Assembly (NCBI GenBank): GCA_016234935.1
Contig: JACRNL010000010.1
Coordinates: 276,589 to 340,588 of the forward strand
Source: Deltaproteobacteria bacterium
GTDB taxonomy: Bacteria > Desulfobacterota > GWC2-55-46
Reading direction: 5' to 3'
Length of the DNA: 64,000 nucleotides
Shown here piece by piece: positions 3,149 to 5,172 of this stretch (position 1 is its first letter; every line of letters begins with the position of its first letter). A model generated the notes under the pieces. That model was not told the DNA's origin. It searched no databases and saw only the letters and a program-made list of their open reading frames with translations. A program made the translations under genes and the position numbers.

Positions 3149-5172
3149 TGCTGCAAACATACTTCGTGGATGTTTCATACCTTGTAGCATCGGTTCTTTT
3201 CGTATTGTGCCTCAAGTTCCTGAACTCGCCTGAGACCGCCAGAAAGGGCGTCCTGCTCGGTGAAATAGGAATGGCCCTTGCCATCATAGGCACGCTTATC
3301 AACCATGAGATCATCACCTACGAGTGGATCATCATAGGCCTCTTTATCGGTTCCATCATAGGCATAGCCATAGCCGTATGGACGCCGATGACGCACATGC
3401 CCCAGCGGACGGCGCTTTCACACGCATTCGGCGCCCTGGCGGTGACCCTCGTCGGAATAGCGGAATTTTACAAACACGGCGCGGACCTCGGCACCATCAA
3501 GACCGCCGCGATAGGCTTTGAGTGCCTTCTCGGCGCGTTGACATTCACCGGCTCCATGCAGGCCTTTTTCAAACTGCAGGAGTGGATGCGCGGCGCGCCA
3601 ATCACCTTCAAGGGCCAGAACGCCCTGAATATGGCCATCCTTGCGGGCATGATCGGGCTTCTCGGCTACATCATCTACGACCCGACCGCTTCATGGGCCT
3701 TTTACCTGATGGTCGCCCTGGGCTTTGCCTTCGGCGTCCTCCTCGTCCTGCCGATAGGCGCGGCGGACATGCCGGTCGTTATTTCTCTTTTAAACTCCTA
3801 CGCGGGACTTGCCGGCTCCGCGACCGGATTCGTGCTTTCAAACAACGTCCTCATCATCGCCGGCGCGCTTGACGGGGCATCCGGAGTCATCCTTTCCATC
3901 ATCATGTGCAAGGCCATGAACAGGTCGATGGCCAACGTCCTTTTCGGCGCATTCGGCTCAAGCACGGCGGGAGCGGCGGCGCCCAAAGTGACTATGCCGT
4001 CTCCAGCCGCCGCATCAGCCGCTCAAGCAGCCCCAACAGGCCCGGTCATAAAGAAACTTACGCCTGAGCAGGCCGGTGGCCTTTTCAAGAACAGGTCCAA
4101 GTCCGTCATAGTCGTGCCCGGCTACGGCATGGCCGCCGCGCAGGCCCAGCACGCCGTCAGGGACCTCGGCGACCAGTTAAAGACCCTCGGCATATCCGTC
4201 AAATACGCCATACACCCCGTAGCGGGCAGGATGCCCGGCCACATGAACGTCCTTCTGGCCGAGGCTAACGTCCCATACACCGACCTCTTTGATATGGAGG
4301 ACATAAACGAGGAGTTCGAGCATACCGACGTAGCCCTTGTTATCGGCGCCAACGACGTCACGAACCCGGCGGCAAGGAACAACGAGCAGTCACCGATATA
4401 CGGTATGCCGATACTGAACGTGGACAAAGCCAGGACCGTCATCGTCTGCAAGCGCTCCATGAGCCCTGGCTTTGCCGGAATAGACAACGAGCTGTATCTC
4501 ATGCCGCAGACCTACATGCTCTTTGGCGACGCCAAGGGTTCCATCGGCAAGCTCGTTGACTCGATAAAGAGCGGCAACGTTGAAGACGTCCCGGTTGAAG
4601 CGCCCGCGGCGGCTGCCGTGACCGGCGGCGGCCCCGCCGTAAAACAGCTCAGCGCCGAACAGGCCTGCGAACTTTTCTCGAAGAAGGCCAAGCGCGTCAT
4701 CATAGTGCCCGGCTACGGCATGGCCGCGGCGCAGGCACAGCATGCGGTCAGGGACCTCGGCGATCTGCTCAAATCAATGGGCGTCAAGGTGAAGTACGCC
4801 ATCCACCCTGTCGCCGGCAGGATGCCCGGCCACATGAACGTACTTCTGGCCGAGGCCAACGTCCCCTACACCGACCTCTTTGACATGGAGGACATAAACG
4901 ACGAGTTCGGAGAAGCCGACGTGGCGCTCGTTGTCGGGGCAAACGACGTCACCAACCCGGCGGCGAAAACCAACCCGCAATCGCCCATCTACGGCATGCC
5001 CATACTCGACGTTGAGCTTGCAAAGACCGTCATCGTGTGCAAACGCTCCATGAAGCCCGGTTTCGCAGGCATTGACAACGACCTGTATCTGATGCCGCAG
5101 ACCTACATGTACTTCGGCGACGCAAAGACATCCATCGGCAAACTTGTTGACGCGATGAAGGCGGCAAAGTAG
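3148..5172 (+). CDS. pntB: NAD(P) transhydrogenase subunit beta with a tandemly duplicated C-terminal NADP(H)-binding dIII domain
   Basis: 674 aa against ~460 expected. The block [23 protein letters not shown]…[20 protein letters not shown] occurs twice (aa ~300-470 and ~500-674), at ~85% nt identity between the two copies. Confidence 0.85.
   Translation: [674 protein letters not shown]

Follow-up and report, generated by a model that had tools for sequence, protein, structure and literature searches.

To our knowledge, one dIII per beta subunit is canonical in every solved transhydrogenase structure, and all mechanistic models of the enzyme, whether they invoke binding change, dIII swivelling or anti-phase alternation, rest on enzymes with one dIII per protomer. 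The closest described systems are the three-subunit enzymes of Thermus thermophilus and Rhodospirillum rubrum (PDB 4O9U; 1PTJ, 1HZZ) and the two-subunit PntAB of Escherichia coli (PDB 9L76), in which dI is fused to the first four transmembrane (TM) helices and the beta subunit carries a single dIII. The subject of this analysis is the pntB gene in a stretch of 64,000 nucleotides (nt) of contig JACRNL010000010.1 from a Deltaproteobacteria bacterium, referred to below as the window, which encodes a beta subunit with two dIII.

As judged from its gene content, with a separate pntAA coding for dI only, a 4-TM pntAB and then pntB, the locus encodes a proton-translocating NAD(P) transhydrogenase (EC 7.1.1.1) with three subunits, as in Thermus and Rhodospirillum. 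It shares the gene set, the gene order and the channel histidine of dII with the enzymes of T. thermophilus and R. rubrum, and the catalytic and coupling residues of E. coli PntAB, including H91, map one to one to the window. The difference from the three-subunit enzymes lies in the beta subunit, which has two dIII and an extra Pro/Ala linker of ~20 amino acids (aa). A changed dI:dIII stoichiometry, as had been proposed for this enzyme, is predicted by the sequence, with four dIII per alpha2-beta2 complex.

A beta subunit with two dIII in tandem

The open reading frame (ORF) of pntB contains neither a frameshift nor a stop, and its product of 674 aa is matched by the PF02233 (PNTB) profile in two stretches, as well as by the PntB chains of E. 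coli (9l76_C, E=2.7e-108) and T. thermophilus (4o9u_B, E=3e-99). A repeat search returned one direct-repeat family within the gene (4039-4338 versus 4630-4929, spaced by 591 nt), and a self-comparison of the protein gave 170 identities at an ungapped offset of 197 aa, as against 56 at the runner-up offset. An earlier note on this DNA, made from the letters alone, had described a duplication of the whole dIII in a protein of 674 aa, with copies at ~4050-4570 and ~4650-5172 joined by an Ala/Gly/Pro linker, and the repeat search, the self-comparison and the profile agree with it: the copies, designated dIII-1 and dIII-2, were measured at 4039-4578 and 4630-5169 (aa 298-477 and 495-674), exactly 591 nt apart, and the linker between them is rich in Pro, Ala, Gly and Val. 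Only the identity of ~85% on the nt level given there was too high: over the unit of 180 codons, the identity between the copies is 78%, for nt and aa alike, and it rises to 81% of nt in the core.

The differences between dIII-1 and dIII-2 are distributed over the first, second and third codon positions in the numbers 23/19/75, which is as expected for coding sequence under selection. An in-frame and ungapped repeat of 540 nt with 78% identity, which coincides with the domain boundaries, is far beyond chance, and pntB is thereby confirmed as a true PntB of variant architecture with two complete, diverged dIII in tandem. With one dIII per beta subunit as the canonical state of PntB, the two dIII of the window protein make it a variant of the family rather than a non-member. 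The divergence between the copies amounts to 0.14 non-synonymous (dN) and 0.88 synonymous (dS) substitutions per site by the Nei-Gojobori method, and to a dS of 2.4 by maximum likelihood; the synonymous sites are near saturation, and the duplication must therefore be old. One tract of 90 nt (4219-4308 versus 4810-4899) shows 93% nt identity between the copies with few synonymous differences, compared to ~75% elsewhere, and may represent a gene-conversion tract or a codon constraint in that segment.

The searchable literature, from which most subscription journals are absent, contains no description of tandem, duplicated or multiple dIII per beta subunit. The earlier note, which was not aware of a description of the architecture, is borne out by the literature searched. 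In the databases, the sequences are already public under a generic PntB name, those with three to five copies as plain 'NAD(P)(+) transhydrogenase subunit beta', although an exact-sequence look-up of the window PntB itself returned no record. Multi-dIII proteins are labelled there as ordinary PntB, and their length could pass for a gene-calling or assembly error. A tandem dIII would probably come as a surprise to a transhydrogenase specialist.

Distribution, conservation and copy number of tandem dIII

In a search of 5.8 billion proteins, about 35 protein clusters of 656-688 aa were retrieved with 55-81% identity and 99-100% coverage, and these double-dIII clusters ranked above the ordinary PntBs of ~465 aa. 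The same architecture is found in species-representative metagenome-assembled genomes (MAGs) from Nitrospirae (L001), Chthoniobacterales (L002) and a groundwater deltaproteobacterium (L003, 82% identical), and one double-dIII orthologue (P0012) is located on contigs of >1 Mb. Because the architecture is shared by about 35 clusters from independent assemblies, the tandem dIII is, on this comparative evidence, a conserved family rather than an assembly artefact. The Chthoniobacterales MAG shows a gene order of its own, pntAB, pntB (double dIII) and pntAA, while dI is encoded upstream in the window and the other loci.

Some candidates for further members did not hold up. L055, suspected to be a double from the span of its tblastn matches, actually encodes a single PntB of 458 aa, and L062 from the same list of candidates yields a single dIII match only. 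In two MAGs labelled 'delta proteobacterium', the extra dIII belongs to a second, shorter PntB paralogue located between pntAA and pntAB (L004, 5962-7239, 425 aa, PF02233 E=2e-92; L005, 5419-6735) and not to a tandem domain; a separate paralogue of this kind is apparently another way to add a dIII to a pnt operon. A synthetic E. coli query of the form dII-dIII-dIII, the scope of which was limited to Enterobacterales, revealed no genuine tandem dIII among the top 120 enterobacterial clusters. An enterobacterial protein of 569 aa from an ENA metagenome contig (P0411) contains an exact internal repeat of 107 aa (AVAQAQ to FKRSM) that disrupts the dIII fold; judged from its sequence, this repeat is almost certainly an assembly artefact and provides a contrast to the repeat in the window.

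The residues that matter in the known enzymes are preserved in the window protein. His92 of PntB aligns with the proton-channel histidine of E. coli, beta-His91, and is invariant in 33 double-dIII proteins. In the alignment to 9l76_C, the E. coli residues G314-Y315-G316, H345, R350, D392, K424-R425-S426 and G430-A432 correspond to conserved residues of dIII-1 (GYG, H356, R361, D403, K435-R436-S437 and G441-F442-A443), and dIII-2 carries the same set at +197. E. coli Y431 is replaced by Phe in both window copies, as in every one of the 87 single-dIII relatives in the alignment. Taken alone, either copy gives a full-length match to the solved R. rubrum dIII (1PTJ_C). When 39 doubles were aligned with the 87 singles, all columns invariant in the single-dIII PntBs were also invariant in both copies of the doubles, and no domain-core column was found that separates copy 1 from copy 2. 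The dN/dS values between the window and L003, the closest orthologue (dII, 0.084; dIII-1, 0.121; dIII-2, 0.108) show both dIII to be, by this comparison of sequences, under purifying selection as strong as that on the membrane domain. Both copies thus look fully competent as NADP(H)-binding domains by their residues, and two of the checks that the earlier note had named, homologues of ~670 aa and purifying selection on both copies, have come out in its favor.

The linkers behave differently from the domains they connect, with a dN of 0.32 for linker 1 versus 0.10 in the domains, and of 0.37-0.74 for linker 2 between orthologues. Across the double-dIII family, linker 2 comprises 17-24 aa and consists of 18% P, 18% A, 11% E, 10% V and 9% G. 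An alignment of 33 double-dIII proteins served as input for an AlphaFold2 monomer model of PntB, which shows nine long membrane helices (H2-24 to H233-256) followed by two dIII folds that agree in secondary structure; the per-residue confidence (pLDDT) is <50 in both linkers, and the predicted template-modelling score (pTM) is 0.43. PntB is accordingly predicted by the model to consist of folded domains on flexible tethers without a fixed mutual arrangement.

A subgroup of the doubles (P0031-P0035, 57% identity to the window protein in BLASTP) has a second dIII that is degenerate: four residues are deleted in the NPAAR loop, the equivalents of R350, S426 and Y431 are changed, and the linker is longer and contains a DPFYxGKV motif. 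This second dIII may be a subfunctionalised or regulatory domain, and by these sequence features subfunctionalisation does appear to occur elsewhere in the double-dIII family, but not in the clade of the window.

Between the window and L003, orthologous dIII copies share 85-86% of their aa, compared to 78-82% for paralogous copies; the duplication therefore predates the split between the two. The two copies of L001 are each other's closest match (88%), and across the deeper subclades the first and second copies (d1 and d2) group by subclade and not by position in a domain tree, a pattern indicative of partial gene conversion, of repeated duplication or of a combination of the two. For the deep clades, a single origin with gene conversion and repeated independent duplication are not separable by these data. 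Single-dIII proteins are interspersed among the doubles in the tree, and one near-species-level 90% cluster (with P0023) holds forms of 668-670 aa together with forms of 476 aa. In this lineage the two copies are near-identical, the two-dIII form (e.g., P0126, 670 aa) and the one-dIII form (e.g., P0127, 476 aa) occur on 6-7 contigs each, and in the short form the d1 head continues directly into the d2 tail. Because of this mixed cluster and the composition of its short form, the copy number appears to be labile by inter-repeat recombination; the length difference itself would represent either a real copy-number polymorphism or a collapse of the repeat in assembly.

When 1.84 billion cluster representatives were scanned exhaustively with HMMER, additional lineages appeared with two dIII (P0147-P0149, P0153, P0155, P0157, P0176), with three (P0143, P0144, P0145) and with four (P0142). 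Among the matches listed in a search with P0143 (120 clusters, P0291-P0409 included), taken together with P0142, four dIII were counted in 85 cases, three in 30 and five in 5. PntBs with three to five dIII are common in Porphyromonas, Desulfovibrio, Alkalicella, Clostridia and Anaerolineae, including isolates of Porphyromonas cangingivalis, Desulfovibrio intestinalis and Alkalicella caledoniensis (complete genome), and the same multi-dIII PntB of 1003 aa is encoded in two separate assemblies of P. cangingivalis. In P. cangingivalis, D. intestinalis and A. caledoniensis, pntAA and pntAB are split, and all inspected multi-dIII operons (including L084-L087) encode three subunits, of which dI is soluble and free.

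These proteins resemble that of the window in the C-terminal tandem of whole dIII on Ala-rich linkers, in the three-subunit operon and in the close likeness of the copies within a protein. They differ from it in that they have more copies (three to five) and shorter linkers (median 8 aa, compared to 21 in the window family), that they form a separate PntB branch with only 41-51% identity to the window protein, and that C-N-[FY]-D replaces K-R-S in every copy, whereas the window protein keeps CKRSM in both. Because of the different motif, the shorter linkers and the low identity, the arrays of three to five copies and the double of the window probably arose separately. The K-R-S motif of dIII binds the 2'-phosphate, and its replacement raises the question whether and how NADP(H) and NAD(H) are discriminated by the arrays.

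Tandem dIII as candidate NADP(H) carriers

Cryo-electron microscopy of the E. coli enzyme has indicated that NADP(H) exchange takes place only with dIII face-down on dII and hydride transfer only with dIII face-up at dI, and that one dIII at a time engages the dI dimer, (dI)2; in three-subunit enzymes, where (dI)2 is not covalently tethered, an anti-phase movement of the dIII may be needed to hold it (PMC13635403). A canonical dimer thus has to serve three docking sites, two on dII and a single productive one on (dI)2, with only two dIII. We consider it reasonably probable that the tandem dIII of the window protein are interchangeable mobile NADP(H) carriers, both of which bind NADP(H) and cycle. 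This reading is based on the copies being equally conserved, indistinguishable, homogenised and flexibly linked, and on the copy numbers of two to five found elsewhere. Each dIII would run the full cycle, from face-down exchange on dII, coupled to protons, to face-up hydride transfer at (dI)2. Four dIII per complex would raise the occupancy of the sites and allow exchange and hydride transfer to proceed in parallel, and one dIII could always stay on the soluble, untethered (dI)2, so that the free dI dimer would be captured. Unequal recombination between the repeats would determine the copy number, and the likeness of the copies would be maintained by partial gene conversion.

Comparable arrangements exist in the three tandem lipoyl domains of the E2 component of E. 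coli pyruvate dehydrogenase and in the multiple tandem acyl carrier proteins (ACPs) of polyunsaturated fatty acid synthases. These repeats are near-identical and mobile, are connected by Ala/Pro-rich linkers, shuttle a bound group between fixed sites, vary in copy number among species and are homogenised by recombination. The likeness to dIII is a functional analogy without homology, as dIII holds a non-covalent, occluded nucleotide, whereas the lipoyl domains and ACPs carry a covalent prosthetic group; the equal conservation of both dIII is consistent with this analogy of a swinging carrier. That the arrays of two to five dIII in general constitute a natural multi-carrier transhydrogenase, in which several equivalent domains, each loaded with NADP(H), alternate with one another at dII and dI, can be put forward only tentatively, as a possibility that we would not yet call probable.

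Several observations weigh against a function of both copies as carriers. That both bind NADP(H) and cycle is concluded from conservation only, and the purifying selection could reflect nothing but the avoidance of a defective dIII that would poison dI. The space between (dI)2 and dII in the solved structures holds two dIII, and two more would have to be accommodated; the AlphaFold2 monomer, with its pTM of 0.43, gives no confident inter-domain placement. All 82 related loci have three-subunit operons, with one or two dIII alike, so that the link to the operon type is uncontrolled and therefore uninformative within the lineage of the window. Finally, a single-dIII relative of 478 aa (P0025), which is 81% identical and ends in a genuine stop codon, is evidence that close relatives do well with one dIII, and any benefit of two must therefore be conditional.

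Of the other explanations, an assembly artefact or a decaying pseudo-domain in place of a functional second copy can be regarded as effectively refuted and retains next to no probability. Metagenome assemblies can create internal repeats, as in P0411, but the copies in the window differ at 22% of their nt, mostly in third codon positions, the edges of the repeat are domain boundaries in an open frame, the second copy shows a dN/dS of 0.11, and the architecture is common to orthologues from unrelated assemblies, while four-copy versions occur in isolate genomes and, for one species, in two independent assemblies. The argument of the earlier note that the divergence of the copies speaks against a trivial assembly duplication is thus borne out by the independent orthologues and the equal purifying selection. 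A passenger domain, made and removed by recombination and preserved solely because dI would be poisoned by a damaged dIII, would account for the single and double forms being interspersed in the tree, for both forms occurring in one 90% cluster and for the 81%-identical relative with one dIII. It appears quite unlikely, however, as the duplication has outlasted synonymous saturation (dS 0.9 to >2) and speciation, as double dIII are found in several phyla and entire genera, such as Porphyromonas and Desulfovibrio, have fixed higher copy numbers, and as a useless domain of 200 aa between repeats should soon disappear through the very recombination that produced it.

A division of labour, in which one copy, most simply dIII-2, serves as a non-cycling anchor for (dI)2 or has a regulatory or NADP(H)-sensing role and dIII-1 performs all of the coupled catalysis, is also unlikely, if less easily set aside. 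It would fit the three-subunit context together with the published suggestion that (dI)2 is kept via dIII (PMC13635403), the native linker to TM14 is confined to dIII-1, and the degenerate second dIII of P0031-P0035 shows that subfunctionalisation is possible in the family. In the clade of the window, however, no residue separates the copies, both of which keep the positions invariant in ordinary dIII and have equal dN/dS values; homogenisation between the copies is expected only if they are interchangeable, and the arrays of three to five near-identical dIII elsewhere fit a dosage effect better than a dedicated anchor.

If the arrays of two to five dIII are indeed multi-carrier forms of the enzyme, one dIII per protomer with anti-phase protomers would not be obligatory, and the copy number would be an evolvable control on the flux per membrane proton channel and on the retention of the free dI dimer. 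Enzymes with two to five dIII may be regarded as natural, unplanned experiments on the one-dIII models, and they open the questions whether the dIII of the two protomers alternate strictly, whether the occupancy of the docking sites is rate-limiting, and how the soluble dI dimer is retained. Such enzymes should be experimentally accessible, as multi-dIII PntBs are present in cultured gut and oral anaerobes (Porphyromonas, Desulfovibrio).

The pnt locus and its surroundings

The coordinates of the genes and domains are listed in Table 1. The stop codon of ppa overlaps the start of pntAA by 4 nt (ATGA, 1648-1651) and that of pntAB overlaps the start of pntB (TAATG); ppa is probably co-transcribed with pntAA in a ppa-pntAA-pntAB-pntB operon, as judged from this arrangement. 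A pattern scan for promoters and terminators performed no better than on shuffled sequences and missed the terminator at 5193-5234, which was found by RNA folding.

Table 1. Features of the transhydrogenase locus, in positions of the window
Feature	Position	Strand	Support
ppa (inorganic pyrophosphatase)	1133..1651	+	PF00719, E=1e-60
pntAA, soluble NAD(H)-binding dI, 374 aa, without membrane helices	1648..2772	+	PF05222, E=7e-44; PF01262, E=7.5e-68
pntAB, 4-TM alpha2 subunit, 97 aa	2855..3148	+	PF12769, E=8e-35
pntB, 674 aa (dII, linker, dIII-1, linker, dIII-2)	3148..5172	+	PF02233, E=8e-261
dII membrane domain, aa 1-267, nine helices	3148..3948	+	E. coli PntB alignment; AlphaFold2 model
Linker 1, aa 268-297, Ala/Pro-rich, predicted disordered	3949..4038	+	pLDDT <50, residues 268-298
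dIII-1, aa 298-477, complete NADP(H)-binding domain	4039..4578	+	1PTJ_C match, E=9.3e-67
Linker 2, aa 478-494 (unstructured ~476-502), Pro/Ala/Gly/Val/Glu-rich	4579..4629	+	pLDDT <50, residues 485-496
dIII-2, aa 495-674, second complete NADP(H)-binding domain	4630..5169	+	1PTJ_C match, E=3.2e-70
Intrinsic terminator, hairpin and U-run directly after the pntB stop	5193..5234	+	fold -29.2 kcal/mol, z=-5.5 vs shuffles

Directly downstream of pntB and convergent to it lies a gene of the isochorismatase family (5587-6342, minus strand), the product of which has an unusually long N-terminal extension of ~55 aa before the Pfam domain; by its family it is nicotinamidase-like and may play a role in pyridine-nucleotide salvage. 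A linkage of ppa to pnt was not found in the related loci, and the nicotinamidase-like neighbor is likewise not conserved beside pnt; both are therefore uninformative on function. The rest of the window contains ordinary chromosomal genes, such as guaA, guaB, polA and tilS. A 39-nt unit occurs twice (87% match) at 28512-28590, where two minus-strand ORFs meet, and short tandem repeats of 18-21 nt are located at 18768, 31235, 46097 and 60313.

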